From Dictyostelium discoideum (Eukaryota), in the NCBI GenBank assembly GCA_000004695.1, contig CM000151.3:6080001-6144000 (forward strand): DNA of 64,000 nt, in the 5' to 3' direction. This document shows positions 40 to 62,663 of this stretch, one piece after another. Position 1 is the stretch's first letter, and the number at the start of each line of letters is the position of its first letter. The notes beneath the pieces are model-generated. The model worked only from the letters and a program-made list of their open reading frames with translations. It did no database searches and was not told the DNA's origin. Position numbers and translations under genes: made by a program.

Positions 40-307
40 ATGTTATTCAGTAAGTTTTTCTTTACTTGCTACTTTTTTTTTTTTTTTTTTTTCAAAACAC
101 AATATTGTAATTTATTTTTTTTTTTTTTTTTTTTTTTTAGAAACTTTAATTTCATCAATTAACAAATCAAATGAATTTTCAAAAATAAATATAAATAATA
201 GTATTGAAAATATAAACATAGAATTGAATAATCAAATTCATGATAAAACAGTTTCATTAAAAACCAAAAAAGTTTACTTTACAAGACCAAACTTTGTTTC
301 CTTTTAA
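40..307 (+). CDS. microgene encoding a ~58 aa small protein (exon1 40..49 MLF+a; GTAAGT intron 50..140; exon2 141..307). Protein: [58 protein letters not shown]. Member of a 4-copy family in this window, possibly related to the D. discoideum sigN-type small-gene families.
   Basis: ATG followed after 10 nt by GTAAGT. Poly-T...TAG acceptor. In-frame exon 2 ends in the conserved TRPNF motif shared with the copies at 1078, 2396 and 46263. Confidence 0.55.
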
Positions 308-1077
308 AAAAAAAAAAAAGAAAAAAAAAAAAAAAAAAAAAAAAAAAAACAAATATGTTTATTTCAATATGGAAAAAAAAAAAAAATGTTATCCGATATT
401 TTAAAAACATTTTTTAAAAAATAAATATTTCATTCCAATACTTTAAAGTTGTTATTTGTTTAACTTTTGATCTATTTTTAGGATTTTTATAAAATGAGGC
501 TTGTTTTATATTATACCAATGTTTCTAAAATTAGTGTATATAATCAGATTATACATTTTTACATTTATTTTTGAAAGATGGGATATTTTCAATTGATTTA
601 CTAACTGTTTTAAACAATTTTTTAAATTTAAATTAACAAGATAATATGAGACCCCATTATCAATTCCCAATGAGATTCTATGTGGTTATATAATTTTTAA
701 AAGTTTTCCGAAAATCAATCACCCCATTTTTTTTAATCCCCTAAATTAATAAAAAAAAATAAAAAAAAATAAAAAAATTATATTTTAAGATCGAGAGTAA
801 GTGAACAAATACTAAAAATATAACAGTAGACCATCTATTAATTAAAATTTTATTTTAAACTTGGTCAAATATTGTATTTAAAATGTATAACAACATCAAA
901 AATTAAATAAAATAAATAAAATTTTATTTTTTTAAAATTTTTCAAAATTTTAATAAATAAATTAATTAATATCCGTATAAATAGGTTTTCGAATTTTTTT
1001 CGTTTCATTTCAAAATTATAAATATTTTTTTTTTTTTTTTCAAATATCTAAAACAATAAAAACTATAAAACTTTAAA

Positions 1078-1314
1078 ATGTTATTTAGTATGTATAATAA
1101 TTTCATTTTTTTCTTTTAAAAGAAATAGTTTCTAATAAAAAAAAAAAAAAAAAAAAAAATAGAATCAATAATTTCATTACCATCAAACAATTTAGAATGT
1201 TCATCAAAAATTGAATGTGAAAATAAAACAATTAAAAATTCAGATATTAACACAAAAACATCAATGAGAAGAATAATTTCATTTTTTACCAGACCACACT
1301 TTATAACATATTGA
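1078..1314 (+). CDS. microgene paralog (exon1 1078..1087, GTATGT intron to 1162, exon2 1163..1314). Protein: MLFKSIISLPSNNLECSSKIECENKTIKNSDINTKTSMRRIISFFTRPHFITY.
   Basis: Same architecture as the 40..307 gene: phase-1 intron after codon 3 and a conserved C-terminal F(F/Y)TRP(N/H)F(I/V)xY. The minus-strand 68 aa ORF in the track is antisense to this gene. Confidence 0.5.
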
Positions 1315-1319
1315 AAATA

Positions 1320-1357
<38 letters not shown>

Positions 1358-1484
1358 ATCCGAAAAATAAATATAAATATTCGACAACAAGAAAAAAAAT
1401 AAAAACAATTATAGTTTTTATGTGAAAAAAAAAATAATAATAAAAAAAAAAATAAAAAAAAAAAAAAAGACTTATTTTCTCAAT

Positions 1485-1524
<40 letters not shown>

Positions 1525-2255
1525 TCTTGAGGAACCTTATATTTTATTTTTCAAAATTAGATTTTTCAAAGATTATCAATTCTGAAATTTAACAGTTAAA
1601 AATTACATATATTTAAAGATTAAAATTATAAAATAGACATTCTCCTTAATATATAATTTTTATTATTTTTTACATATTTCTTTCTATATTCTACCACATT
1701 CAAGTATCGAATTCAAACATTAAATTCCTTTTTTAGCAAAACCTTAAAAATGTTACATAAACAATTTTTAAAAAAAAAAAAAAAGAAAAAAAAAAAAAAA
1801 GAAGGGGAATTTACTTTATACAGCTTTAAAAAGTGTAATATTAATTTTGGACCCACCCATAAAATTTTAAATCATTAAATTTCAAAATAATACCATCAAT
1901 TTATTTTTTTTTTTTTTTTTTTTTTTCTCTTCTGTATTTAAAATTAAAAAATATTTTTCACATCAAAAATCCAAAATAATAATTTGATAATTTACTTTTA
2001 ATAGGTTGTTTTTATGAATGATATGGATAAGTATTGATCAATTTTTTTTCCATTTTTAAAATAAAATAAAAAAAAAAAAAATAAAAAAAATAAAAAAAAA
2101 AAACTAACAATTTTTAAATTATATTTTTTATTACCTTATATTTTCATTTATTATTAATATTCGTGTATGTCAACAACAATTGATTACAACATTTTAATAT
2201 TAGATTGAAATAATTATATTTTTATTTTTATTTTCACCCCATTTTAATTTAATAT

Positions 2256-2294
<39 letters not shown>

Positions 2295-2395
2295 ACAAAA
2301 AAAATTGATAAAGGATTTTTTTTTTTTTTTTTTAACTAAAGAATTTAAAAATAAAAAAATAAAAACTATAAGATCAATAATAACAATATAAAAAA

Positions 2396-2628
2396 ATGTT
2401 ATCAAGTATGTTTTTAAAAAAAAAAAAATCTTATCATAAATAAACCCTTGCTAATTTTCTTTTTTTTTTTTTTATATAGAATCAATTATTTCTTTCTCAT
2501 TAAAAATTTCAAATGATAATAATCCAATATCAAATACTATAACTCAAAATGTATCATTTGATAAAAATACAATTTCAATGAGAAGTAAATCAGCTTTCTA
2601 TACAAGACCAAATTTTATAAATTATTAA
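2396..2628 (+). CDS. microgene paralog (exon1 2396..2405, GTATGT intron to 2479, exon2 2480..2628). Protein: MLSKSIISFSLKISNDNNPISNTITQNVSFDKNTISMRSKSAFYTRPNFINY.
   Basis: Same two-exon structure and C-terminal motif as the other copies. Confidence 0.5.
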
Positions 2629-2666: not shown

Positions 2667-2947
2667 AAAAAAATAAAATCAAATATTAAAAATGGGCCGA
2701 AAATCAAATTGATTACCTTTTTAATAATAATGAAAAATTAATTTTAAAAGAATAAAAAAATAATTTGTTTTATTTTATTTTATTTTATTTTTTGATTTAA
2801 TTTTTTTTTTTTTTTTTTTGATTGATCCCATAACCCTTTAAAATTATCATTTTTTAAAAATTTCATTTTCAAAAAAAAAATAAAAAATTTAATTATTTTT
2901 TTCTTTTTTTTTTTTTTTTTTAATTAATTTTAAACCCATTCATCACC

Positions 2948-6908: not shown

Positions 6909-7949
6909 ATGTCAAAATATTTCTTTTTATTTATTATTTCAATATTTTTATTTTCAATTTTTGAAACTACCAACTCCCAATCAAGTACTATCTATGTAAT
7001 TCAAACTACTCCAACCTTGTACTCAACCTCATGTTCTTTTAATGTAAAATTTATTTCAAATGTTATCTATACAAATATTTTTGGAACCAATCTTGAGGAT
7101 TGGAGCGTTTCAGATGGTCTTTATAATGTAAATATCTACACTGAACAAGGTCAACAAAATTTATATGTTTGGGGGATTGATTCAAATTCAATTCAATATA
7201 ATCTATTCTTGGGAAATGTAGTATGCTCATCTCCATGTCCAGGTTTAAATGGTCAATGTAATGGAAATGGTCAATGCATTAATGGAGAATGTAAATGTTT
7301 CACTCCATGGAGTGGTAGTGATTGTTTCTTAAATATCACTGAACAATTTGTTTGTAGTTCCGGATGTCAAGGTGATTGTGGTGGTAATGGGGTCTGTAAT
7401 TCCACCAGTATTCCACCAGTTTGTATTTGTAATACTGGTTATTCTGGTACAAATTGTGAAAACATAATTCCAACACCAAATGATAATTTCATCAACTCTT
7501 TAATATTCTTACAAGAAGTTTTACCAAATGGAAAACCATTCTCAAAAATAATTTTCAACGGGTGGGATAAAACCATTGAAACTGCCTACAATGGTATTTA
7601 CTATCACTATAATACAACTATACAAATTGGTCAATTCTCACCAACAATTGAAATCAAAGTAGTTGATTTTTATAATATGTACGACACATTCTCTGTAACT
7701 GGTGCTCTTCAAGTTGAAAGTAGTTTTAATTTTGAAATTAAAATTAGAAACTACCCATTAGAGAACCCATTAAACAATCTTCAATTATTTTTCAACACTC
7801 AAATTAAAGATGGTTGTATGGGTGTTAAAAAAGCAAATACTATTTCCTCTCAAACAATTTATGAAGAATCATTCTTAACTGTTAAAATTGAAAATAGTCA
7901 ATCATCTTTAATGTTTGCTCTTGTTGATTTACTTATTTTTAGTTGTTGA
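6909..7949 (+). CDS. secreted/cell-surface cysteine-rich glycoprotein with two EGF-like modules (CSSPCPGLNGQCNGNGQCINGECKC; CSSGCQGDCGGNGVCN...CICNTGYSGTNC), an N-terminal signal peptide and a hydrophobic C-terminus (possible GPI signal).
   Basis: 346 aa single ORF. Hydrophobic N-terminus MSKYFFLFIISIFLFSIF followed by TNSQS. Cys spacing matches the EGF consensus. Many N-x-S/T sites. Confidence 0.6.
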   Translation: MSKYFFLFIISIFLFSIFETTNSQSSTIYVIQTTPTLYSTSCSFNVKFISNVIYTNIFGTNLEDWSVSDGLYNVNIYTEQGQQNLYVWGIDSNSIQYNLFLGNVVCSSPCPGLNGQCNGNGQCINGECKCFTPWSGSDCFLNITEQFVCSSGCQGDCGGNGVCNSTSIPPVCICNTGYSGTNCENIIPTPNDNFINSLIFLQEVLPNGKPFSKIIFNGWDKTIETAYNGIYYHYNTTIQIGQFSPTIEIKVVDFYNMYDTFSVTGALQVESSFNFEIKIRNYPLENPLNNLQLFFNTQIKDGCMGVKKANTISSQTIYEESFLTVKIENSQSSLMFALVDLLIFSC

Positions 7950-9718: not shown

Positions 9719-10352
9719 TTATTTTTTGGCGGTTTTCTTGCCAGCTTTCTTTAAACGGTTCTTCTTTTCCTTTCTTTGTTTTCTTGAGGTTTGTGGTTTA
9801 GTGTATAAACCAGCCTATTATTTAATGAAAATAGAATGAAGTAGAAAGTAGAAAATAATAATAATACGAACATGGAAATAAAAAAAGATACAGTTTTAAT
9901 TATAATTTAATTTACATAGAAAATTAAAATTATAATAATTTGATTAGTTTAAATGGTTCATTAATGAAATGATCAGCAAGTGATACCCGCAACAACATCA
10001 CTGGTTATTGATGATCATATTGTATTATTGTTGTCGTTGAGAGTATAAAATGAAACGAATTACTTACACGTGCAAGACGGTATTTTGGTTCGTATTTCTT
10101 GGCAATTTCTAAGTTGTCATAGATTAAACCGAAACCAGTTGATTTACCACCACCGAAGTCAGTCTTGAAACCAAAGAGGAAGATGGTTTCTGGGTCAGCA
10201 ACTTTGTGGAGTTTAGCAATGGTGGTTTTTAAGTCTTTTTTGGAGACGTTGGCTTTACCTGGGTGAACAACTTCGACAACGAATTGCTTTCTTGAGAGGA
10301 GACGGTTGGTTAAGACCTTTCTGGTACGAACAACGACGGCAGCTTTATCCAT
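9719..10352 (-). CDS. rps24: 40S ribosomal protein S24 (exon1 10068..10352, GTAAGT intron, exon2 9719..9814)
   Basis: [95 protein letters not shown] + [31 protein letters not shown]. This matches eukaryotic S24 almost residue for residue. Confidence 0.9.
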
Positions 10353-35199: not shown

Positions 35200-35998
35200 T
35201 TATTACTATTCATCAGTAACCCTAATATATTTTGAATAAAAGGAAGGATCTAAAGTATTTATAAACTAATATTATTTAAAGATAAATATATTGTTTCTAA
35301 TAATGGTAATTGATTTGGCTTGGAAATAAATTATTTTCAAAGTCTTTGGAAGAAGATTAATATTAATTGATTTCCTTTATGTCCACCCAAATTTAAAGTT
35401 GTTAAAGATTAAGAGTTGGGAAAATTATTATTTTCTAAATTTGGGTTATCACTTCTACCAAATTCTAAATTTGTTAAAGAATAACATTCATTGAAATCGG
35501 CATTATAAAGAAAGAAACCACTAACATTACTTGTAAGTTTAAATGTTTTTATAGTTGAAGGGACATCAAAAGGTGAATGAAATGATTTACCAAGTTCAAT
35601 ATATTCAATATTTGAAAGTAATCTACTATCATTTAAATTACTATTGAAATTATCATTAAATGAAATTGACCTAATTGGGGATGGAAGTGCCAATGGTTGT
35701 ATTGACTTTTGAATGAGTCACCAAATTCAATGTTTGTAACATTATACCAACTTTAATATCAACATTCACTCTTACTATAAGATTTGTAGTTGAAACTGGA
35801 ACTTTGGTTTCAATAAATAATTCCACAGTTTATCTTAAATTTAGAACTGAATTTGGTATTGAACCATAGATAATCGTACTTTGATAGGCATTCAAGATAT
35901 AAAAAAATTAATCCCTCTGGAAGTTTATTTGTTGAAATGATTCCCCCTAATCTTAAAACTTTAAGACCTTTTGGTAACCACTCGATAATGGTTTTCAT
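35200..35998 (-). pseudogene. decayed paralog of the FNIP-repeat gene at 37739..39131. Fragments MKTIIEWLPKGLKVLRLGG... and ...IELGKSFHSPFDVPSTIKTFKLT... have internal deletions and frame breaks.
   Basis: Nucleotide similarity of 35211..35330 to 37746..37860 and of 35400..35700 to 38100..38450. ORFs are broken into 62 and 94 aa pieces. Confidence 0.6.
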
Positions 35999-37738: not shown

Positions 37739-39131
37739 TTATTGTTCATCAGTAACCCTAATATATTTTGAATAAAAGGAAGTATCTAAAGTATTTATAA
37801 AACTAATATTTTTTGAAGATAAATATATTGTTTTTAATAATGGTAATTGATTTGGTAATTCATAAATATTTTGATTAAAAGTTGGACATTGGAAATAAAT
37901 TATTCTTAAAGTTTTTGGAAGTAGATTAGAATTAATTGGTTTATCAAAAGATTCACCAAAATTAAGTGATTTAAGATTTTTAGGTAAAGAATTCTCTTCA
38001 ATTGGAAAATTGTAATAATATCCTAAATTTAAATTTGTTACTGATGATGGTATTTTTGATAATTGATTCCCTTTATATCCACCCAAATTTAAAGTTGTTA
38101 AAGATAAAGAGTTGGGGAAAATAATTTTTTCTAGATTTGGGTTATCTCTTCTACCTAATTCCAAATTTGTTAAAGAATAACATTCATTTAAATTAGTTAC
38201 ATAAAAAAAGAAATGATATGGATCACCACTAAGAGGGGAACCAAAGTTGTCATTGTAATTAGTTGTAAGTTTAAGTGTTTTTACAGTTGAAGGGATATCG
38301 ATACGAGATTGAAATGATTTACCAAGTTTAATATATTCAATATTTGAAAGTAATATATTACCAACTAATTCTTTATTGAAACTATCACCAAATGAAATTG
38401 ATCTAATTGAGGGCGGAAGTGCAAATTGTTCAATTCTACAAATGAACGAATCACCAAATTTAATATTTGTAACATTATGAGGAATCATACCAACTTTAAT
38501 ATCAACATTGGCTCTTACTTCAAGATTTGTAGTTGAAACAGGAACTTTGGTTTTACTAAATGATTCCACAGTATATCTTAAATTTTGGACTGAATTTGGT
38601 ATTGAGCCATAGATAATGGTACTTTGATAAGTATTATCAAGATATAAAAATATTAATCCTTCTGGAAGTTGATTTGGTAAAATCGGTTGTTGAAAAGATT
38701 CTCCTAATTTTAAAACTTCAAGACTTTTTGGTAACCACCCCCCCCAATGACTGATTAAATATTCCAGTGAATTCAATGCTTTTTATACCATTTTTAATAA
38801 TTTTATTATTTAATTGTTGATTAAATCTCCTATTAAAAATTACACTAATCAACGAATCTGGTAAAGAATTTTCTTGTAAAATTGGATTATAACTACCAAA
38901 AAATTCCAAATATCTTATACTTGAAGGTAAATCACCAGCTTCTAAATGTGAACCACCTCTATTTAATGAAACATCGAATAAATAATTTTTATAAACATAA
39001 TTATTTAATTTTTCAATTGTAAAACTATAATAATTACTATTATTATTATACAAATTAAGATAAAAAAAAATTAAATCTCTTATATATTTATTTCCCCAAA
39101 CTGATCTAATTATTTGATTTTCTTTATCCAT
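37739..39131 (-). CDS. FNIP-repeat-containing protein (Dictyostelium FNIP repeat family) interrupted by a +1 frameshift in a C8 (G8 on the coding strand) homopolymer at 38741..38748. This is either a pseudogene or a sequencing error.
   Basis: ORFs 38718..39131 and 37739..38776 overlap in different frames. Removing one G restores ...FTGIFNQSLGGWLPKSLEVLKLGESFQQPI.... Repeats LP..L..L.FG..FNQ.L are present throughout. Confidence 0.65.
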
Positions 39132-42710: not shown

Positions 42711-43588
42711 TCCAACCCAAACAACAAAGGTAAGCATAATTTTTATATGCCCAAAAAAAAAAAAAAAAAAAAAAAAAAAATAAAAGGTATCCAGGGGAAT
42801 TTAAATGATGATCAAAATATATTTGCTATTCTTAGTTATTTATCAATCATGCTGAATGGAAATTTCTGATTTAATCCTCCCTTCATACCTTTATTGGGCC
42901 AATATTTAAATATTCTTTAAATATAATAATACTAATATTTTTCTTTTGAATTATTTAGGTTTTTTTTTTCTCTGATAACAATCCTTGAAATATTTCACAC
43001 TGACAAATGAATTTATTAAATAAAAAAAAAATTTAGTTTTATAAAAAAAAAAAAAGGTTTTCGTGTTTATGATATTTTTTTATTTTTTTTATTTATTTTT
43101 TATTTTTGACTACTTTGTATAATAATTTATTTTATTTCATTTTTTTCTATTTTTAGATTTTTTAAATAATAATTTTTTTTTTTTTTTTTTTTTTTTATAG
43201 AAAAAGAAAATTATTTGATGACTGTATACATATGCAAACAGGCGATATTTAAAAAACAAGAATGGAATTTGGTATCATCACACTTTTTAATTTGTTTTTT
43301 TTTTAATTTTTTTTTAATTTCGACCATCGTTTTTATTTTTATTTTTTTTTTTTTATTTTTTTTTTTATTTTTTTGTGTTTTTCTTGTACAGTCATTCATA
43401 TTAAAAAAATAAAAAATAAAAAATAAAGAAAAACAAAACTATTATACAAATTCGAAACATATCGATAATACAACATAAAACAAATTACCTTTTTTAATTT
43501 TTTTTAATTTTTTTTAATTTTTTTTTTTTTTTTTTATTATTTTTGGAAACTTAAAAATAGTTTATTGCTAATAGTAAAAATATTAATA

Positions 43589-45651: not shown

Positions 45652-46075
45652 ATAAAAACAATTGTTCATAATTTCTTTTCTTTTATTTTATTTTTTATTT
45701 TCTGAAGTTCTAATTATCTTTTATTTATTTAAATTGGTTAAAATATTAAATTCATATTTAAATCTGCTTGTGGAGAATATTAATTATTTAAAATTAAATA
45801 AATGAAAAGAATCTAATTAATTAATTTTAATTTTTAAAAACTTTAAAAAAATTAAATTGTTGAGGCGATTAAATAAACAATGATGTTCGAATTTATTATT
45901 AGCAAAGTGTAAAAAAAAAAAAAAATATTATTATTTTTTTATAAAAGATTATAAAATCATTATCTTGTACTTGTTGATATCATACTCTTTGATCATAAAT
46001 TTATTTTAATATTGTATGTCAACATATTAATTTTACAAATATAATCTCTTGTTCCTAAGAATTAAGTAGTGGGGT

Positions 46076-46155: not shown

Positions 46156-46262
46156 TATAAATAGATTTTTTTTTTTTGTAATTAAATCAATTATAAAATC
46201 AATTATTATTTAAATCTAAAAACAAAGAAAAATAAACTATATATATATATATATATATAAAA

Positions 46263-46516
46263 ATGTTATTCAGTAAGTGTCTAAAAAAAAAAAAAAAAAA
46301 AAAAATATAATAATTATAAAAAACAAAATTCTAATCATTATTTTTTTTTTTTTTATAGAATCAGTTATTTCCTTATCAAATAAATCATTAAATGTCACAT
46401 CTAGATCATTAGTTTCAAATGATTCTAATTTAAATACTTTAAATTTAACTTGTGATTCTGTTTCAAGTGTAACTTCAACAACTTTCTTTACAAGACCAAA
46501 CTTTATAAACTATTAA
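46263..46516 (+). CDS. fourth microgene paralog (exon1 46263..46272, GTAAGT intron to 46358, exon2 46359..46516). Protein: MLFKSVISLSNKSLNVTSRSLVSNDSNLNTLNLTCDSVSSVTSTTFFTRPNFINY.
   Basis: Same MLF + phase-1 intron + ...TRPNFINY architecture as the three genes at 40..2628. Confidence 0.55.
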
Positions 46517-47228
46517 AAAAAAGTAAAAAAAAAATTATATAATTGAAATAAAAAAAAATATAAAGGGCCGACCAAAAATTAAAAATAAAAAAAAAAATTG
46601 TATTTTATGTAATTTTAATCAGTCAAAGGATTGTTTCACATCTTTAATAGTATTTAATTTTTGAACTTTTCAAAATAATTTTATTTTTAATTTATTATAA
46701 TATGATAAAAGTTATTAAATCTCAGTACTAAACCATGGTAAGATTGAATTGATTTTTATTAATTTCTTTAATTTTTTTGAAAATATTCGTACGAGCTATT
46801 TTTTCAAAAAATGTAAAAATAGCGAACGAATAGCAACATTAATTATAGAATCATTATTATAAGTTTTTGTCCGAAGATCGATTTCCATATACAGTAACAA
46901 TCTATAACCGAAGTCAGTTATTCAGAATAACAAATTACCTTTAAATCCTTCCCAGGTTTCTTAGAATAATAATTCAGTATAAAAAGCCAAAATAAAATAA
47001 ATAAAAATCATTATTGTTTAAATCATAGTTAGTGTAAAGATATAATATTATTTAGTGTTAAAATATAAATATAAATATAAATAAAATTAATAAAGAATTA
47101 ATAATATTATTACTACTCATATTTGTGTGTAATTACAATAGTAATTAAGGGTTCACACATATGTCTTTATTTAGTATTGTTATTTTGGTAAATATAGGCA
47201 ATACAGTTTATTTCAAAAATATCGATTA

Positions 47229-47302
47229 GTTCGGATGGTGTAGTCGGTTATCACGAATCCTTAACACGGATTAGGTCGTGGGTTCGATTCCCGCTCTGAA
47301 TA
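47229..47302 (+). tRNA. tRNA-Val (anticodon AAC)
   Basis: Cloverleaf: acceptor GTTCGGA/TCTGAAT, D-arm GTGT..TCAC with GGTTA, anticodon stem AATCC/GGATT with loop TTAACAC, T-arm GTGGG TTCGATT CCCGC. Followed by a T-run. Close to the animal tRNA-Val-AAC consensus. Confidence 0.85.
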
Positions 47303-47352
47303 CAAACTAATGCTTTTATAAAAAAAAATTCTCAATTTGAGTGTGTTCGAGT

Positions 47353-47755: not shown

Positions 47756-50700
47756 AAGTAGTAGTAATCATAATATAACCAAAAATATCAACATATAACA
47801 ATATAAAAATTTAAAAATTTAAAAATCTAAAAATTTAAAAATGTAATAAAATATAACAATACACCGCTTTTAGGTAAAAAAAAAAAAAAAATAAACTTAA
47901 AGGTGAACTCAACTTAGGCGAAGAAGAGTTAATAAAAAAACTATTCAAATAAGGTTATTCTACCCACATACCTTGGAATTAAATAGTAATTAAACAAAAT
48001 TAATAGATAATTTCATAGTTAATGGTACTCTTAACATTGTCAGAAGACAAAAGGGTATAACAGTATTCGGTAGAATACTAAAAGAAAAATTCACATTATT
48101 ACACGAGTGTTACAGCACTTTCAAGTATGAAGATTTCCCACTGCAAAAATTCATACTTTACACCCCAGGATATCACTATGTCCACTTTTACACATTTACA
48201 AAAAACATAATAAAAAAAATAAACAATCAAATGGTAAAAGAAAACTGGGGATTGGAGCCATTACTAATAGATGAATGCAACATAGTAATGCTACCAGATG
48301 TGATTAGATATTCATGCATACTATAATTTAATAAAGAAGATGATATCTCAATCATTAAAACAAACATTGATGCTATAAAAGGTAGTAAGCATCCAATAAG
48401 AGCCTTCATCTCTGAATATAACAATAAAGAAATAAGAGATGTTAGAAAAAAAAAAAACACAAGTAATAAAAACCAACAACCAACAACTACAAATACAACT
48501 AAATCAATACCATCAACTCCACCAACAACTAATGCATCAACAACCACACCAATAACAACCACACCAATAACAACCACACAAACAACAACCACACCAACAA
48601 CAACCACACATCAATTACCAACAAGCAATACAACAATCTACAACCTAAACAAAACTACTACTACTACTACTACTACTACAAAACCTATCAATAAAATTAC
48701 TACAAGCAATGGTACCAAGTTTCCAATTGCCAGTAGTATTAGAAAATAATGGAACAATTAAAATTATTACTATGGAACTGCAGAGGTAATCAATCAACCA
48801 ACGCTAAGAATAAAACAGAAGAAACGATAAAAAGAATTGGCACTCAATTAGCACTCCTAACTGAAACTAATTTCAATGGATTCAACCACCACAAAACAAT
48901 GTTCAACTTTGAAAGAATAGATCATGGTTCAGGTAAAGGAACTGGCATAGCAATAGAAAATAGAGATACAAGAAAAGGCCACATATCAATAAACTTCAAA
49001 GACGATGATGGTAGAATACTATCAATTAAATACAATTCCTTTAATTCTATCAACATATTATTGATCTATGCTCCAGCGACTATATCTGAAAGAAACACCT
49101 TCATAATCAACTCAAAATCACTGTTTAAAAAATATAATTCAATCAACCATCAAATAATAGCAGGCGACTTCAATAACAACCACGATTGCAACAGCTTCTT
49201 CGGTACTGAATTACGTAAAATAATAGACCAAGACATGCTACTAGATACTGGTATTGAAGAAAACACTCCAACATTTCCAAGATCAATGAAGAGACTAGAT
49301 AGAATCTACTGTCATCCAACACTACTAAACCAAAATTCAAAACTGGTAGTCCACAACACAGTATTTAACAAATCAGATCACTTTCCCATCACAATCACAA
49401 TACAAACCAACAGAGAAACAGCAACAACAACAACAACCAAACTAGAAAGACTCCCTTGGACATTATGTAAAGAAATTCTCAACAACAAACATATACATGA
49501 TGGGTTATCAGAATTAATCAGTAAGAACAAAGATAAGATCAAATCAGTGGAGGAATGGACGAAATTTAAAAATAATGTCATCAGAGATTATTTAAAAAAA
49601 GAACAAAACAAAATAAAGAAAGAAAAGAACAAAAGAAAATACGTAATCCACAAATTACTTGGAAATAGTGATATCATTCCAAAGATGAGAAAAGAACTCA
49701 ATGAAGAAATAAGTAGAATATTAGAAGAAGAAAGAAAGGTAAAAGCATGGGATATCAAATTAAAACTCCACCTGCATCAAGAAACACCAAGCAAATACCT
49801 CACAAGTATCCTTAAATCCAGAGCCAAAGATAAATCAATATTCCAAATAAAAGATAAAGATAATAAGACCATATCAGATAAAGAGAACATAGCAAAAAGA
49901 TTTGTTGAATTCTATCAAGATCAATATGAAGAGAAAGAAGATAACGAAGAAACCCACAAGAAGTTATTAGAAAAATGGGAAGTAGACGTTGATTTAATCA
50001 AGAAACTCGAGATAGACAGACCGATAAGAATACATGAAGTGACCAAAGCAATCAAAACTTCAAGTATCCACAAATCTCCAGGTTTAGACGGTATCAATGC
50101 ACTATTCTACAAGTACCACATCAACTCAATAGCAAGAATATTGACTATAGCTTTCAACGACCTCCTCACAAATAAGAAAGAAATCCCCACAAAATTCAAA
50201 GAAGGAGTAATAACAACAATATTCAAAAAAGGAGATGAACTAAACATTTCAAATAGAAGACCAATCACCCTTCTCAATACAGATTACAAAATTTTAAGCA
50301 AAATTCTCAACAGTAGATTATTAGATATCACCAGTAAAATTATCAACAAATTTCAAAACGGCTTTGTTCCAAACAGGTTCATCCAAGACAATATTCAGAT
50401 CATGAAGGAAGTAATAGAAATAAGTAACAAAAGAAAGAACAATACACTCATTACCTTTTACGATTTTAACAAAGCATTCGATTCAATCAGCCACAAGAGT
50501 ATCACAAGAACATTAGAGCATATTGGTATCCCCCCAAAATTCACAGCGATCCTACTAAACCTACTCAAAGATACTAAAAACAAAATAAAGATCAACGAAT
50601 TTTTAGTCAATGGAATAACAATCAGAAGAGGAACAAAACAAGGAGACCCAATATCACCAACAATCTTTGCTCTAGTTTTAGAACCACTTCTAATATATAT

Positions 50701-51658
50701 CATCAATGATAATACAATCAAAGGCTTCACTTTACCAAATTCCAAATCATTAAAACTCACTGCATTTGCTGACGACATAGCAACATTTACAAACTCCACT
50801 GAAGAACTAATGAAAATTAATACTAAAATCCAAAAGTACTGCTCAGCAACATCATCATCGTTAAACAAAGAGAAAACAGTAATGATAGCAATAGGAGATA
50901 AACCACACGATCTACCATTCCAAGAGAGTACAGTCCCAGAAAGATATCTTGGCCTCAATTTCACCAAAACAGGTTTAAATTCAAAATACAACACTTTAAT
51001 CCAAGAAATGAAAAACAATCTAATCAAATGGAAATCACAAGCAATAACGATGAAGGCAAAGATGACAATTCTCAAAACATACGTTCTATCCAAATTAACA
51101 TACCATCAATACATGGATAATCTAAATGAAGAACAAATTGAGGAAATCAATAACATGACCAGATGGTTCTTATTCTCCTCAGTTAAGAATACATATACAG
51201 AAGAGAGAAAATACAAAACTATGATGAAAATAGACAGAGCATATGCAGATTGGAAAGAAGGAGGCATAAAATTATGGGATATAGAACTAAGACATATAGC
51301 ATTCAAAATCTGGTACATGAACAGGCTACTCCATAACAACTACAACAACAACAACAATACCTTACAAGAATGGTACATGGAGCAATTAAGTAGAAAAAAA
51401 GCCCCCACTTCAACCCTCAACGATATGTACAGACACTGGGGTGTATTCAGAGTCAAATTTTACCAAAACCATCCAAAGATAAATGAACATAGAAACAGAA
51501 TTACTAAATCTCATCGAAACTGAAAAATTCATCACACTAAAGAAAATCAAACACGACGAAGCAATACTAAAAAACACCAATCAAGATCTTCACAAATACA
51601 AATTCAACAAAGCCTGGCAAACCCCAGCAGCTCCGAACCCTCTTCCAATTTAAGTAGT

Positions 51659-52327: not shown

Positions 52328-52399
52328 TCCTTGTTGGTCTAGTGGTGAGGATTTTCGCCTGTCACGCGAAAGGCCCGGGTTCAATTCCCGGACAGGGAG
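52328..52399 (+). tRNA. tRNA-Asp (anticodon GUC)
   Basis: TCCTTGTTGGTCTAGTGGTGAGGATTTTCGCCTGTCACGCGAAAGGCCCGGGTTCAATTCCCGGACAGGGAG is near-identical to the eukaryotic tRNA-Asp-GTC consensus. Followed by TTTTTT. Confidence 0.9.
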
Positions 52400-52439
52400 C
52401 TTTTTTGGAAGATTTCAAAATTCCTTGTTAAATTTTATA

Positions 52440-53996: not shown

Positions 53997-56900
53997 GAAA
54001 TAAACGAGAATTTATACATATAAAAAATAAATCACTGTTATATCTTCAGTATGTTGCGTTTAAAAGTTACATTATAACATATCATCTAATTGATCACACA
54101 CACAACATTGTTGATCAAAAGATCGAACAACCATCTGGTATCACAAGATATATCAAAGCTGCAACACGTAGTGTCACTAAACACAAAATTCAACATGCAA
54201 AAAATGCAGATATGGCAACAACTATAAAAAATGCTATCACAAACCCAAACATGAACAAAAACAATCAACCACCAAAAAACAACATTAACACCCCACCAAT
54301 CAACGAAATTGCAAATTCCAATCGCAATAATAACCCACTTCAAAATAGTGGTTCAAAAGCTACACTAAATGAATCACTTGATATTACCAATCAATCCCAA
54401 AACAATAATGAAATATCACACAAAAGTTATTCTCCAAATAATAATAACGGGAAAAACTCATTATCAATGAGCAATCCAACCGATCCAACAATTGTACCAC
54501 AAAAACCTCTACAATCTCAACCAAACAAACCAAGTGCATCAACCCCAAATACAATAAATACAAGAAGAAGCAGCAATGCCCTGACTACACAACCAGTCAA
54601 TACTGGTGCTACCAAACCTAGTAAGGTATGAGCTCAAAAATCAACTTTATAACATGGAATTGTAAAGGATTCACTGAAAACCCAAACAATCAACACAATT
54701 CCTACCAAAAAGCTGTTGACACACTACAACTACTTATATCAAAACTTCCACCTCGTCCAACAATCTCAATACTCACTGAACTCAATTCATCACCATTACA
54801 ACTTAAACATGATTTTCCCGATCACATCATCTCTGTCACCAAACGAGGAAATGGTGTAATCATCATTAACCATAACCCAAACTCACTCAAACTCAAACAC
54901 ATATCAACAATTGATGGTAGAGCTATTTTAGCAGACGTTATATTTCCAAATCAATTACCAATTGGTATTCTTGGAATTTACGCACCAGTATCAAATAATA
55001 CCATCAAAAAGAATTCATATGCAACTTCACTACAAACACTTCTCCACAACCACTCAACAAACCCAATACCAAACCAATCCCAACATGTATCTATTATCTC
55101 AGGAGATTTCAACTGTATCCACAACGACAATTCACTATTAGATGATATTATCCAATCCTACACATACCAACACCATCTAATTGATCAAGGTGAATTTAAA
55201 AACACTCCAACTCATACACATGGTAACAGATTAGATAGAATATATACTCAATACAATAGAATAGACCCTGAAAATATATATACTCAAGTCCACCAAATTC
55301 CATCTTCATTATCAGATCATAATCCAATATCAACAACAATTTCTTCACCTTTTCAAATAAATAAACATAAGAAAAGATGGATATTATCACCTGGTACTAT
55401 AAATGACCATGAAGCAATCAATATTATCAATCATTTAATAACTAATCACAATAACACATCAATCAATCAATTTACAAACTGGTCAAAAGTAAAATCAAAA
55501 ATTATTAAAACTCTAAAAAACTATCAATATAACAAAGACAAACAAACCCAACGTGCAAAACAAATACTATTAGAAAAAGCAGCAAAATTCAAACATCTTG
55601 AAGAACAATGCATCGCCGAATACAATATTATATGTAACAAAAACAAATTACATCAAAACCACACAAACATATTAAAAAAACATATAAATGGAGAAATACC
55701 TAGCAAGTATCTATCAGCAATACTAAACAAAAGATCAAAAGATGCAAAAATTGAATCAATCCAATATGGTAACATCATTACATCCGACCCCGACCAAATT
55801 GAAAATGCATTTGTTGAATTCTACACAAATCTATATAGCTTACAAATATGTTGTCCAATTACTCACCAGCTCATGCTAAACACATGGTCCATCATAAAAA
55901 ATGAATATTGGAATGGTTTAGACTCACCATTTATACAAGATGAAGTTGAAGCTGCAATTAAAACCTGTTACCCCAACAAATCACCCGGTCCAGATGGCGT
56001 TACAAATGCATTCTACATTAATCATTTAAACCAAGTTAAACCAATTCTCACTGCATTATTCAACGATATACTAGAAAATCCTCACCACATCACAACAGAA
56101 TTCACCGAAGGTCTTATACACACAATATACAAGAAAGGCAACCCCTTACTCATATCAAATCGTCGTCCCATTACACTTCTAAACACTGATTACAAGATCC
56201 TCTCAAAAGTAATCAATGCACGTCTTCTGAGAATACTTCCTTTCATCATCAATAACAACCAAACTGGTTTCGTACCCCACAGATTCATCATAGACAACAT
56301 CATCAACATCAATGAATTAATCAACTACCTCAAATCTAAAAACCTCCCTGGTATCATCACACTATTTGACTTCTTTAAAGCATTTGATTCTATCTCTCAC
56401 GATAGTATTAAAAGAACATTAATTCATATGGTATACCAATAAAATTAATAAATTTAATCCACAAGCTATTATCTGACTTACAAGCAAAAATTTCAATTAA
56501 TGGTAAAACAACCAGAAAATTCGATATTAAAATAGGTGTAAAACAAGGTGACCCAATCTCAGCCACTTTATTTGTAATTGTAATTGAAATATTAGCAAGA
56601 ACAATAAATGCAGACAATTCAATAATTGGTTTACCAATTTCACCCAATCCACAAATTAAAATCAAATTTACCCAATTTGCAGACGACTCTACAACATACA
56701 ACATCAACTACGAACAACAACAACAATCAATCAAACATTTCGATAATTTCTGCGCTTCAACATCATCATCATTAAATTTTGACAAAAGTGCAATAATAGA
56801 AATCAACCCCCACAAAATCACTGATAAACACATAATAAACAATATTCCACAATCAAAAAGAATACCAATAACCAAAAAAGATCAATCAGAAAGAGTCCTT

Positions 56901-59717: not shown

Positions 59718-60764
59718 TTATTTAATTTTTCCAAATGTTTTAATTAACAAATCATTAGACTTTAAAAAATTAGTTTTAAAATCTTGAGAAATTGCAGTGA
59801 AAAATTGATGATTACAATTGTCATTATTTTCTTTTGAAAGTTTTTTAATATCTTTTTCAACTGGTATTAATGAAAAAATAAAAGGTGATATTTCAACCAA
59901 AACAATTGGTCTATTTACATTTAAACAACTATTAGTTTCATAGATTTGATTTGTTACTTTACCTAGATTAACTGGAGAACGAGCAATATGAAAAAGAAAT
60001 TCTGCATTAAAATCTTGAGTTTTCTTATTATATAATTTTGCAGTTGAACATGATATATTTGGAATTTCAGGTTCAAATGATTGAAATGATAATTGTTTAA
60101 AATCATTTTCAACTGGATCGATATCTGATGTATGAAAATTAATTAAACCTTCAATACAATGAAATCGGATTTCATTTTTAGATAAATAACAAATTAATTG
60201 ATCGATTTCATTTTGATCACCAGCCACCAATATTAAATCATAGCATAAACAACCACAAATTTGAATTGATGGATAATTTGGTTTAATAAAATCCCAATAA
60301 TAATCTTCAGGTTTTTTAATGGATATTATTTTCTTTATTGTTTTATTTTCAAGTTTTGTCATTAAACATGCTCTTTTATGGGAAATGAAACAAGCGGTTT
60401 CCAAATCGATTAAACCTGAACAATAAGCTGAAGCAATCTCTCCTAAACTCATACCAACTATTTGATCTGGTTTTACACCATAATGTTTATAAAGTTTAAA
60501 AATTGAAACTTGAAACATAAATGATATACAATGAATAAAATGTTGTTCTAGAAATGAATCACTATCATTCTCTTTAAGATTTTTATATTTATCAAACATT
60601 GAATATCCATAATATTTTTCATTAAAAATATTATCAATTTCCATTATCGTTGATTTAAAATTATTTCCATTTTCAAATAATTCTAATGGTATTTTATTTT
60701 TAAATGAACCTTGACCAGAAAATATAAATACTAAATATGGTTTTGTTATTTTATTTTCTTCCAT
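59718..60764 (-). CDS. stand-alone acyltransferase (malonyl-CoA:ACP transacylase / PKS AT-domain-like) protein, 348 aa, intronless. Motifs FSGQGS, GMSLGE (His of GHSLGE replaced by Met) and FHTS.
   Basis: MEENKITKPYLVFIFSGQGSFKNK...IVGMSLGEIASAYCSGLIDLETACFISHKRA...LINFHTSDIDPV has AT-domain block order and spacing. Confidence 0.7.
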   Translation of the reverse strand: MEENKITKPYLVFIFSGQGSFKNKIPLELFENGNNFKSTIMEIDNIFNEKYYGYSMFDKYKNLKENDSDSFLEQHFIHCISFMFQVSIFKLYKHYGVKPDQIVGMSLGEIASAYCSGLIDLETACFISHKRACLMTKLENKTIKKIISIKKPEDYYWDFIKPNYPSIQICGCLCYDLILVAGDQNEIDQLICYLSKNEIRFHCIEGLINFHTSDIDPVENDFKQLSFQSFEPEIPNISCSTAKLYNKKTQDFNAEFLFHIARSPVNLGKVTNQIYETNSCLNVNRPIVLVEISPFIFSLIPVEKDIKKLSKENNDNCNHQFFTAISQDFKTNFLKSNDLLIKTFGKIK

Positions 60765-61359: not shown

Positions 61360-62516
61360 ATGATTTCAGGTATTGAAGAAGATATAAAAGAAAAACCATT
61401 TGTTGTGTTTTTTTTTTCAGGTCAAGGTGGAATTCATAATAAATTAGCAGTCGAATTATATGAAAAAGAACCAGTTTTTAAGAAATGGACTGATGATATT
61501 GATAATATTTTAAAAGAGAAATATTATGGATATTCGATGATTGAAAAATTAAAATCAATAAACGATGATGATAGAGAAGCATTATATGATCAACATCTTG
61601 CTCATTCAATTTTATTTATATTACAAATTTCATTATTTAAATTATATAAACATTATGATGTAACTCCTGATATAATTTATGGTTTAAGGTATTATTTAAT
61701 TTGAAAAAATATAATAAAAATAATAATACTTTTTTTTTTATTTTAAATTTTATATTAATTAATATAATATTTAATAATTATTATTTTAGTTTAGGTGAGA
61801 TTGCATCATCATATTGTTCTGGAATGATTGATTTAGAAACAGCATGTTTTGTTTTATATTCAAGAGCAGTATCAATTAATAAAACATTTAAAGAATATGA
61901 TAGAACATTGGTATCAGTTGATATTTCAGAAGAAAATTTCAATTCAAAATATAGTTTAAAATTCCCATCAATTGAAATTGCTTGTAAAATTCATGCTCAT
62001 ACCATTACATTGGGTGGGAAAATTACAGATATTAATCAACTATTTGAATTGTTTGATATTGATAATGTCAGTTATAAAAGATTACCAATTGCATCAAGTT
62101 TTCACACTTCTTCTATGGAATCTATTAGGGAAGAAATTCTTAATTTATCATTCGATTATTCTCAACCTACTATTACTCATTTTTCAACAGTAACTTGTAA
62201 ACCATTTGATATCAAAACCCAACCATTTAATTCATTTTATCTTTATAATAATATTCGTGAGCCATGTCTATTGGAAGAATCAACAAAAAATATTTATTTA
62301 TTTCATTTAAATAATAATAATTTAAATTATGATAATAATAACAATAATTATAAAAATAATGAATATAATTATGACAATATTGATAAATTAACAAATCAAA
62401 AAAAATATAACCAATCAAAAAAACCAATATTTATAATAGAAATATCTGCGCAATACTCTTTAATTTATTTTATTGAGAAAACAATATATGAATTATCAAT
62501 CAAATATAATGATAAA

Positions 62517-62559
<43 letters not shown>

Positions 62560-62663
62560 TTAATAATAATAAATTTTTATCTACCTTGTATAGAGACAAA
62601 AATGGAGATTTAAATACATTTAAAAATGTAATATCAAATATTAAAGAGGTTTACAAAAACTAA
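61360..62663 (+). CDS. paralogous stand-alone AT-domain-like protein (exon1 61360..61688, intron GTATTA...TTTTAG, exon2 61790..62663). The intron splits the G-L|S-LGE active-site motif. C-terminal Asn/Tyr-rich tail.
   Basis: FFFSGQGGIHNK...IIYGL/SLGEIASSYCSGMIDLETACFVLYSRA...ASSFHTSSMESI. Divergently oriented to the 59718..60764 gene. Confidence 0.65.

Follow-up and report, generated by a model that had tools for sequence, protein, structure and literature searches.

The window analysed here is a stretch of 64,000 nucleotides (nt) from chromosome 2 of Dictyostelium discoideum AX4, with a GC content of 22%. It contains exactly four copies of a two-exon microgene, all on the + strand, with start codons at 40, 1078, 2396 and 46263 (c1 to c4 below). 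All four share a layout in which a first exon contributing only 10 nt of open reading frame (ORF) is followed by a phase-1 GT..AG intron of 74-91 nt and by a second exon that closes with (F/Y)(F/Y)TRP(N/H)F-x-x-(Y/F)-stop. In c1, exon 1 (ATGTTATTCA, 40..49, encoding M-L-F and the first base of a K codon) precedes a 91-nt intron (50..140, GTAAGT...T-run...TAG) and an exon 2 that includes the stop (141..307), for a product of 58 amino acids (aa). Exon 1 of c2 (1078..1087), its 75-nt intron (1088..1162, GTATGT...TAG) and its exon 2 with stop (1163..1314) encode 53 aa ending in FFTRPHFITY; exon 1 of c3 (ATGTTATCAA, 2396..2405), a 74-nt intron (2406..2479, GTATGT...TAG) and exon 2 with stop (2480..2628) encode 52 aa ending in FYTRPNFINY; and exon 1 of c4 (46263..46272), an 86-nt intron (46273..46358, GTAAGT...TAG) and exon 2 with stop (46359..46516) encode 55 aa ending in FFTRPNFINY. 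Joined in phase 1, the spliced products of c2, c3 and c4 are MLFKSIISLPSNNLECSSKIECENKTIKNSDINTKTSMRRIISFFTRPHFITY, MLSKSIISFSLKISNDNNPISNTITQNVSFDKNTISMRSKSAFYTRPNFINY and MLFKSVISLSNKSLNVTSRSLVSNDSNLNTLNLTCDSVSSVTSTTFFTRPNFINY. The starts all read ATG TTA Tnn A|GT(A/T)(A/T)GT, and the introns are rich in homopolymers with TAG at the 3' end. A preliminary description of this DNA had placed two-exon microgenes at these four positions, and splice reconstruction confirms both the positions and the layout. Its dimensions are slightly revised: the proteins are 52-58 aa rather than 50-58 aa long, and spacing within the c1-c2-c3 array is 1038 and 1318 nt rather than ~1.1-1.3 kb.

The spliced products are exact, full-length matches to four annotated AX4 proteins, all named 'hypothetical protein': c1 is DDB_G0275639 (XP_643625), c2 is DDB_G0275477 (XP_643626), c3 is DDB_G0275641 (XP_643627) and c4 is DDB_G0275705 (XP_643648). 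The AX4 reference annotation thus already holds precisely these two-exon models. The earlier statement that gene tracks missed the units or called antisense artefacts in their place is therefore right for the ORF at 1116..1322 on the minus strand, a mechanical TTG-start ORF antisense to c2 exon 2, and wrong for the reference annotation. The set of units is also beyond chance: the start pattern ATGTTATYNAGTAWGT and the pattern ACMAGACCAMAYTTT, which encodes T-R-P-(N/H)-F, each occur four times over both strands of the 64 kb, where shuffled sequence would give 0.00, and each start is paired with one TRP(N/H)F end on the same strand. No degenerate relic copies were found in the window, and the intergenic DNA between the tandem units has no homology except in homopolymer runs.

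We refer to these genes as the FTRPNF family, a name coined here, defined by a 10-nt exon 1, an N-terminal M-L-x-K-S, a C-terminal T-R-P-(N/H/S)-F-x-x-(Y/F)-stop and a length of 51-60 aa. This definition describes all four window genes, whose proteins score against the family profile with E-values of 1e-17 to 7.5e-22, and 25 further copies found at the DNA level. Searching with a profile built on the four proteins brings up other proteins of ~53 aa in D. citrinum, in D. firmibasis, in D. cf. discoideum and on AX4 chromosome 2, those of AX4 being DDB_G0276001, DDB_G0276621, DDB_G0276639, DDB_G0276641, DDB_G0276651, DDB_G0276655, DDB_G0276699, DDB_G0276707 and DDB_G0276741. An exhaustive HMMER scan over 1.84 billion representatives returned 19 cluster representatives at E <= 0.001, from Dictyostelium only, and added DDB_G0276649, DDB_G0276467, DDB_G0276643 and DDB_G0286475 (the last on chromosome 4) in AX4, more D. 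firmibasis genes and one gene of D. purpureum. Counting the family from the four peptides, as the preliminary description had proposed, thus gives 17 annotated members in AX4. The D. purpureum member is annotated as 'expressed protein', a label that by convention denotes transcript support and so hints at expression; two small gene models beside it are unrelated to the family.

At the DNA level we collected 29 copies from five genomes: the four of the window, 12 from D. firmibasis, one from D. purpureum, four from D. cf. discoideum and eight from D. citrinum, the second AX4 cluster being represented by the corresponding loci of D. firmibasis and D. citrinum. Every copy has the 10-nt exon 1, a phase-1 intron of 66-113 nt bounded by GT(A/T)(A/T/G)GT...AG and an ORF of 51-60 codons, with a second exon of ~150 nt, and the protein frame that had been noticed in the window is kept in every further copy. 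The consensus is MLFKSLISLSNK, then ~28 variable residues rich in Ser, Asn and Thr, then (S/T)xxFFTRPNF(V/I)NY; in other words, an N-terminal module MLFKS(L/I)IS(L)SNK and a C-terminal module (S/T)xx(F/Y)FTRPNF(V/I)N(Y/F)-COOH are separated by a fast-evolving spacer.

The products, of ~53 aa, are basic and Ser/Asn/Thr-rich, and are predicted to be disordered: an AlphaFold2 model has no secondary structure, with a predicted local distance difference test score (pLDDT) of 61 and a predicted template modelling score (pTM) of 0.15. The four window proteins contain no Gly, 0-2 Cys and no hydrophobic segment, their longest strictly hydrophobic run being 2-3 residues. By Kyte-Doolittle hydropathy none of the four has a classical signal peptide, for which the N-terminal hydrophobic core should span 7 residues or more. 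Their maximum over 9 residues is 1.5-1.8, compared with 3.2 for a classical signal peptide elsewhere in the window, in agreement with the weakly hydrophobic N-termini first described. Pfam, NCBIfam and PDB sequence searches with family proteins gave nothing meaningful, and our literature search found no paper naming any member except DDB_G0276707, whose promoter is reported to contain a putative G-quadruplex.

The copies also share elements outside their coding sequence. Most have a TATAAATA (TATA) box 82-112 nt 5' of the ATG, represented in the window by CCGTATAAATAGG at 976..983 (-105 from the c2 ATG, and kept in the D. firmibasis ortholog f2) and by TACTATAAATAGA at 46156..46163 (-110 from that of c4), all window elements given here lying on the + strand. 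Further upstream, TGTATGTCAAC(A) occurs at -207 to -268 in 13 of the 29 copies, including TGTATGTCAACA at 2164..2175 (c3, -232) and at 46013..46024 (c4, -250), and both the TATA box and TGTATGTCAACA are enriched. A G-rich box (GTGGGGT or ACCCCA) is present in 9 of 17 copies; the G-box-like sequences of the window are CACCCCA at 2235..2241 (c3, -160) and GTGGGGT at 46069..46075 (c4, -192). Downstream of the stop codon the order is an A-run, a sense-strand CCGA (often GGCCGA or GGACCGAC) and AATAAA. The CCGA lies 16-102 nt 3' of the stop in 24 of 29 copies and its complement TCGG in none, a strand bias with a binomial p of ~1e-25 over the 110 nt after the stop, a value that treats the copies as independent although they are not. 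In the window it is found at 393..396 (c1, 5' of AATAAA), at 1360..1363 (c2) and, as GGCCGA, at 2695..2700 (c3, +67 after the stop) and 46566..46571 (c4, +50). TGTATGTCAACA and GGCCGA have only two exact copies each in the 64 kb, flanking c3 and c4 both times; the same elements are found again at family members in the four other genomes, and the flanking elements stand at matching positions in ortholog pairs. A weak hairpin (381-415) presents the CCGA of c1 in its loop, and comparable hairpins (CATG/CATG vs CAAG/CTTG stems) were considered as a conserved structure of the 3' untranslated region (UTR). They were rejected as not thermodynamically significant, RNAalifold recovering none, and only the motif itself is retained.

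The c1-c2-c3 array is older than the split between D. discoideum and D. firmibasis. At the corresponding D. firmibasis locus (L002), PDS5 is followed by three copies, f1, f2 and f3 (at 10001, 10944 and 11916), that are 1:1 orthologs of c1, c2 and c3 in the same order, and then by orthologs of the genes downstream in the window, which are 87-96% identical in aa sequence between the two species. Two of the ortholog pairs illustrate the pattern of divergence (IISFFTRPHFITY vs IISVFTRPHFITF; FDKNTISMRSKSAFYTRPNFINY vs FDKNSISMKSTSTFYTRPNFINY). Exon 2 is 67-70% identical between orthologs, with a single codon-sized (3-nt) gap in each pair, while the introns and flanks of the same pairs contain 4-88 gap columns. 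Across 17 DNA copies, the proportion of synonymous differences (pS) far exceeds that of non-synonymous differences (pN) at both ends of the protein: 0.57 vs 0.15 in the C-terminal 10 codons and 0.38 vs 0.14 in the first 8 codons, with TTT/TTC, AAC/AAT, ACA/ACC and TAT/TAC interchanging freely while the residues remain unchanged. Selection thus acts on the protein, beyond the DNA alone, and the restriction to in-frame indels together with the excess of pS over pN in the end motifs indicates real coding genes. Between these constrained ends the middle of the protein is near neutral, evolving at ~10 times the rate of neighbouring genes; for whole genes the ratio of non-synonymous to synonymous substitution rates (dN/dS) is 0.12-0.98 in the ortholog pairs, compared with 0.03-0.07 in neighbouring genes, at a dS of ~0.56.

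Taken together, we consider it probable, and favour as the explanation overall, that each of the four units is a spliced protein-coding gene in its own right, all of them belonging to one small family confined to Dictyostelium. How such genes might act can be sketched tentatively. The fixed distance of the C-terminal decapeptide from the free carboxy terminus suggests a docking or ligand motif, and we propose with low confidence that this invariant short linear motif is the active part, carried by a basic peptide that is predicted to be disordered. The N-terminal module would represent a second conserved function; it resembles the start of hssA/sigN proteins, which an intron interrupts at the equivalent point, and may serve both families as a tag for sorting or processing. 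Each unit is preceded by its own promoter-like region, in which the TATAAATA box stands ~100 nt 5' of the ATG and is accompanied by a G-rich box and, in many copies, by TGTATGTCAACA near -230. The G-rich boxes might point to GBF-type post-aggregative regulation, as proposed for sigN, and the CCGA element might mediate control at the mRNA level; both suggestions are made with little confidence. Promoter boxes and CCGA element together could provide coordinated regulation.

Several observations weigh against this reading or its parts. The overall dN/dS of c1/f1 is ~1, and apart from its two ends the protein sequence is under almost no constraint. The four window genes appear in no paper found by our literature search, their identifiers are absent from the supplements of a cell-type RNA-seq paper and of a life-cycle proteome, and in the literature and supplements consulted there was no transcript, ribosome or peptide evidence for them. 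Common descent of the paralogs means that p-values for motif enrichment overstate their independence. Finally, the docking motif, the sorting tag, GBF control and the mRNA element are all tentative readings of pattern.

The preliminary description had likened the units to the sigN-like small-gene families, and the relationship to sigN/hssA/2C/7E (PF05710, 'Coiled') deserves a careful comparison. The sigN genes were defined by similarity to SigN1 (Vicente et al. 2008, PMC2257962) and number 96, of which 89 have a 13-nt exon-1 ORF and four, among the sigN-like genes, a 10-nt exon 1. Their introns are 66-128 nt long and their promoters carry G-rich boxes; sigN/hssA proteins are mostly 75-100 aa, those of core Groups 1 and 2 being 87-89 aa and Ser/Gly/Cys-rich, and SigN itself has four conserved Cys, together with a segment predicted to be hydrophobic (PMC2257962). 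Kin et al. 2018 (PMC6198379) treat hssA/7E/2C as the same family, with ~100 genes and a 13-bp first exon. FTRPNF genes resemble these in being clustered, lineage-restricted and often on chromosome 2, in having a micro first exon that holds only the first 3-4 codons before a single short phase-1 intron just past the start (66-113 nt), in an N-terminus of the form M-x-(I/L)-(L/F/M)-x-S-I-(S/I)-S-(I/L)-(G/S)-N, in their upstream G-rich boxes and in the absence of a classical signal peptide. They differ in an exon 1 of 10 rather than 13 nt in all 29 copies, in products of 51-60 aa rather than mostly 75-100, in lacking the Gly/Cys-rich body, the four Cys and the predicted hydrophobic segment, and in the invariant C-terminal FTRPNF(V/I)N(Y/F), which is unique to them. 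With respect to the post-aggregative, prestalk/cup-cell, GBF/SrfA-dependent expression that characterizes sigN/hssA, the FTRPNF counterpart would be the G-rich boxes of 9 of 17 copies.

It is conceivable, though we think it unlikely, that the FTRPNF genes are a divergent branch of a sigN/hssA/2C/7E superfamily that kept the ancestral micro-exon, the intron and the N-terminal module and exchanged the Gly/Cys body for an Asn/Ser spacer and the FTRPNF tail. The two-exon layout, with its micro first exon and similar-sized phase-1 intron, would fit such an origin, as would the sigN-like G-rich boxes and the four published sigN-like genes of 96 that have a 10-nt exon 1. More specifically, PF05710 genes that we read from D. 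dimigraforme start MTIM|ASISSIGN with a 13-nt exon 1, and this aligns with M-LFK|SIISLSN, one codon being absent, such that the introns fall at equivalent positions. The same one-residue offset recurs exactly in the best sub-threshold PF05710 alignments, where residues 2-36 of family member P0025 match profile positions 3-37, and P0023 behaves likewise. These scores are low, however: among eight family members from outside the window P0025 reaches 13.7 bits (E = 0.11) and P0023 7.9 bits, six have no match, and the four window proteins have none at E <= 10, against a gathering cut-off of 21.4 bits and scores of 68 and 56 bits for positive controls from D. dimigraforme. An hhalign comparison of the family profile with PF05710 gives a probability of 0.5%, from a template that is thin at two sequences, as homology searches for sigN/hssA proteins yielded just one, from D. 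dimigraforme. The exhaustive HMMER scan returned no PF05710-type protein. The window proteins, at 52-58 aa with no Gly and 0-2 Cys, do not have the sigN composition, and the common N-terminus is short and of a composition usual for Dictyostelium. Nor does any of the 96 listed genes fit. Because that list carries old DDB0 identifiers, it was compared by gene structure, and no chromosome-2 entry combines 52/53/55/58 aa with a 10-nt exon 1 and a 91/75/74/86-nt intron. The FTRPNF genes may work like sigN/hssA, and a distant shared ancestry is possible, but on present sequence evidence they are not members of that family, and the sigN assignment first proposed is not supported. The D. dimigraforme genes themselves include a divergent hssA-type (PF05710) pair (locus L004, 10397-10727 on the + strand and 9780 on the minus strand), one gene of which has a 14-nt exon 1 with an additional T in a T-run, which reflects a frameshift or else a homopolymer error of the assembly; the extra T breaks the frame and thereby accounts for an aberrant 105-aa annotated model.

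A second alternative is that the genes encode precursors of processed or secreted signalling peptides, in which the conserved C-terminal ~14 residues, often after K/R, are cut free as an active peptide, or in which the two ends are recognition sequences around a variable core. We regard this as improbable. Precursors of peptide hormones and of ribosomally synthesized and post-translationally modified peptides (RiPPs) are exemplified by the CLE/CEP precursors of plants and the MSDIN family of Amanita. By analogy, FTRPNF proteins share with them conserved ends, a hypervariable middle, an invariant short C-terminal motif and membership of an expanded, clustered, lineage-restricted and fast-evolving family, and (M/L/I)-(K/R)-S is frequent 12-15 residues from the C-terminus. 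The analogy goes no further: the basic residue is variable and c4 is without it, there is no classical signal peptide, no processing enzyme genes adjoin any locus examined, no sign of cleavage is seen, and no peptide was found in the life-cycle proteome supplement. There is a slight chance that the genes encode precursors of a new class of dictyostelid peptide signals or effectors, the active molecule being the C-terminal decapeptide or an excised variable core. If so, diversifying clustered copies would provide specificity, in settings such as communication between cells or encounters with microbes, and the dedicated CCGA element of the 3' UTR would coordinate their expression.

It is also very improbable that the transcripts act as RNAs with translation incidental, as has been argued for hssA, a frame-shifted copy of which still suppressed a mutant (as cited in PMC6198379). 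The conserved, strand-specific CCGA of the 3' UTR is compatible with such a role, and 6 of the 12 3' segments that were folded form a weak hairpin around CCGA. These hairpins are not significant (z of -0.3 to -2.6) and RNAalifold finds none; Rfam 15 at the gathering score has no match overlapping the units, its only matches in the window being DdR17 and two tRNAs elsewhere. Also against an RNA function are the preponderance of synonymous over non-synonymous change in the conserved motifs, the in-frame-only indels, and the maintenance of ORFs of 51-60 codons in all 29 copies, in DNA of 22% GC. That the units are spurious predictions or decaying pseudogenes, alike only through recent duplication, is hardly credible and largely refuted, in spite of the name 'hypothetical protein', the absence of literature, the low-complexity middle region and the c1/f1 dN/dS of ~1, for the orthologs, at a dS of ~0.56, and the D. 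purpureum gene keep the start, the splice sites, the reading frame, the place of the stop and the motifs at both ends, and the paralogs are old, their intergenic spacers sharing only homopolymer runs.

Returning to the reading of the units as separate spliced protein-coding genes, it is now clear that these are real and ordinary genes, already annotated as hypothetical in AX4, for which we found no Pfam model and no paper. The family is heavily under-called in newer Dictyostelium assemblies. In D. citrinum one of the eight copies is gene-called (L006 1205-13137) and in D. cf. discoideum two of four (L005 6001-11062), while six of the 12 D. firmibasis copies (L001 3070-13503; L002 10001-12141) are called, two of these six being mis-modelled: a 101-aa model (P0017) overruns the true stop, and a 65-aa model omits the micro-exon and places its start within the intron. 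Two of the three D. firmibasis orthologs f1-f3 are unannotated in that genome. Even in AX4, the 5' end of DDB_G0276001 (75 aa) looks mis-modelled. Current gene callers thus miss most copies in new assemblies, and a simple pattern model would repair the annotations.

Clustered families of small proteins have been noted before in D. discoideum transcriptomics (PMC3640940), comprising 57-59 aa prestalk proteins (DDB_G02835xx) and 69-72 aa prespore proteins. FTRPNF genes are similar to these in encoding tiny proteins from clustered genes, with no similarity beyond dictyostelids and no known function, but differ in gene identifiers and chromosomes, by which, rather than by sequence comparison, we set them apart. 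Dictyostelium has several expanded families of tiny lineage-specific proteins, none with an understood function, to which the FTRPNF family adds one that is cleanly defined by gene architecture, diagnostic motifs, flanking elements, syntenic orthologs and separation from PF05710 in every sequence test applied. Experiments could take hold of its strictly kept C-terminal motif and of the 3' CCGA, which is specific to one strand.

The remainder of the window contains several other features. The gene c4 lies ~700 nt upstream of a tRNA-Val (47229-47303), and this tRNA and a tRNA-Asp (52328-52400) are each followed by the ORF of a non-long-terminal-repeat (non-LTR) retrotransposon (48749-51523 and 54628-56442), in which endonuclease and reverse-transcriptase domains are present. 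Near-identical (96-100%) repeat segments also follow the tRNAs (51481-51823/52821-53161 and 53170-53469/57763-58062), and the whole arrangement matches that of Dictyostelium tRNA-gene-targeted retroelements (TRE). The C/D-box small nucleolar RNA DdR17 is encoded at 42802-42871 (+), where the Rfam model RF01567 reaches 101 bits, its gathering score being 80. An ORF of 346 aa at 6909-7949 (+) combines a classical signal peptide with stretches rich in Cys; the genes that flank it are directly adjacent in the syntenic interval of D. firmibasis, 262 nt apart (L002 15888-16150), so that the ORF was gained or lost in one lineage. Direct repeats in three collinear segments, 83-88% identical and ~2.7 kb apart (35364-35908 vs 38060-38651), suggest a local tandem gene duplication. 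Finally, two opposed ORFs with acyl-transferase domains (PF00698), at 59718-60764 on the minus strand and 61701-62663 on the + strand, share a 74%-complementary inverted repeat (60448-60641 / 61495-61688) and could be paralogous malonyl-transferase or polyketide synthase (PKS)-type genes arranged head to head.

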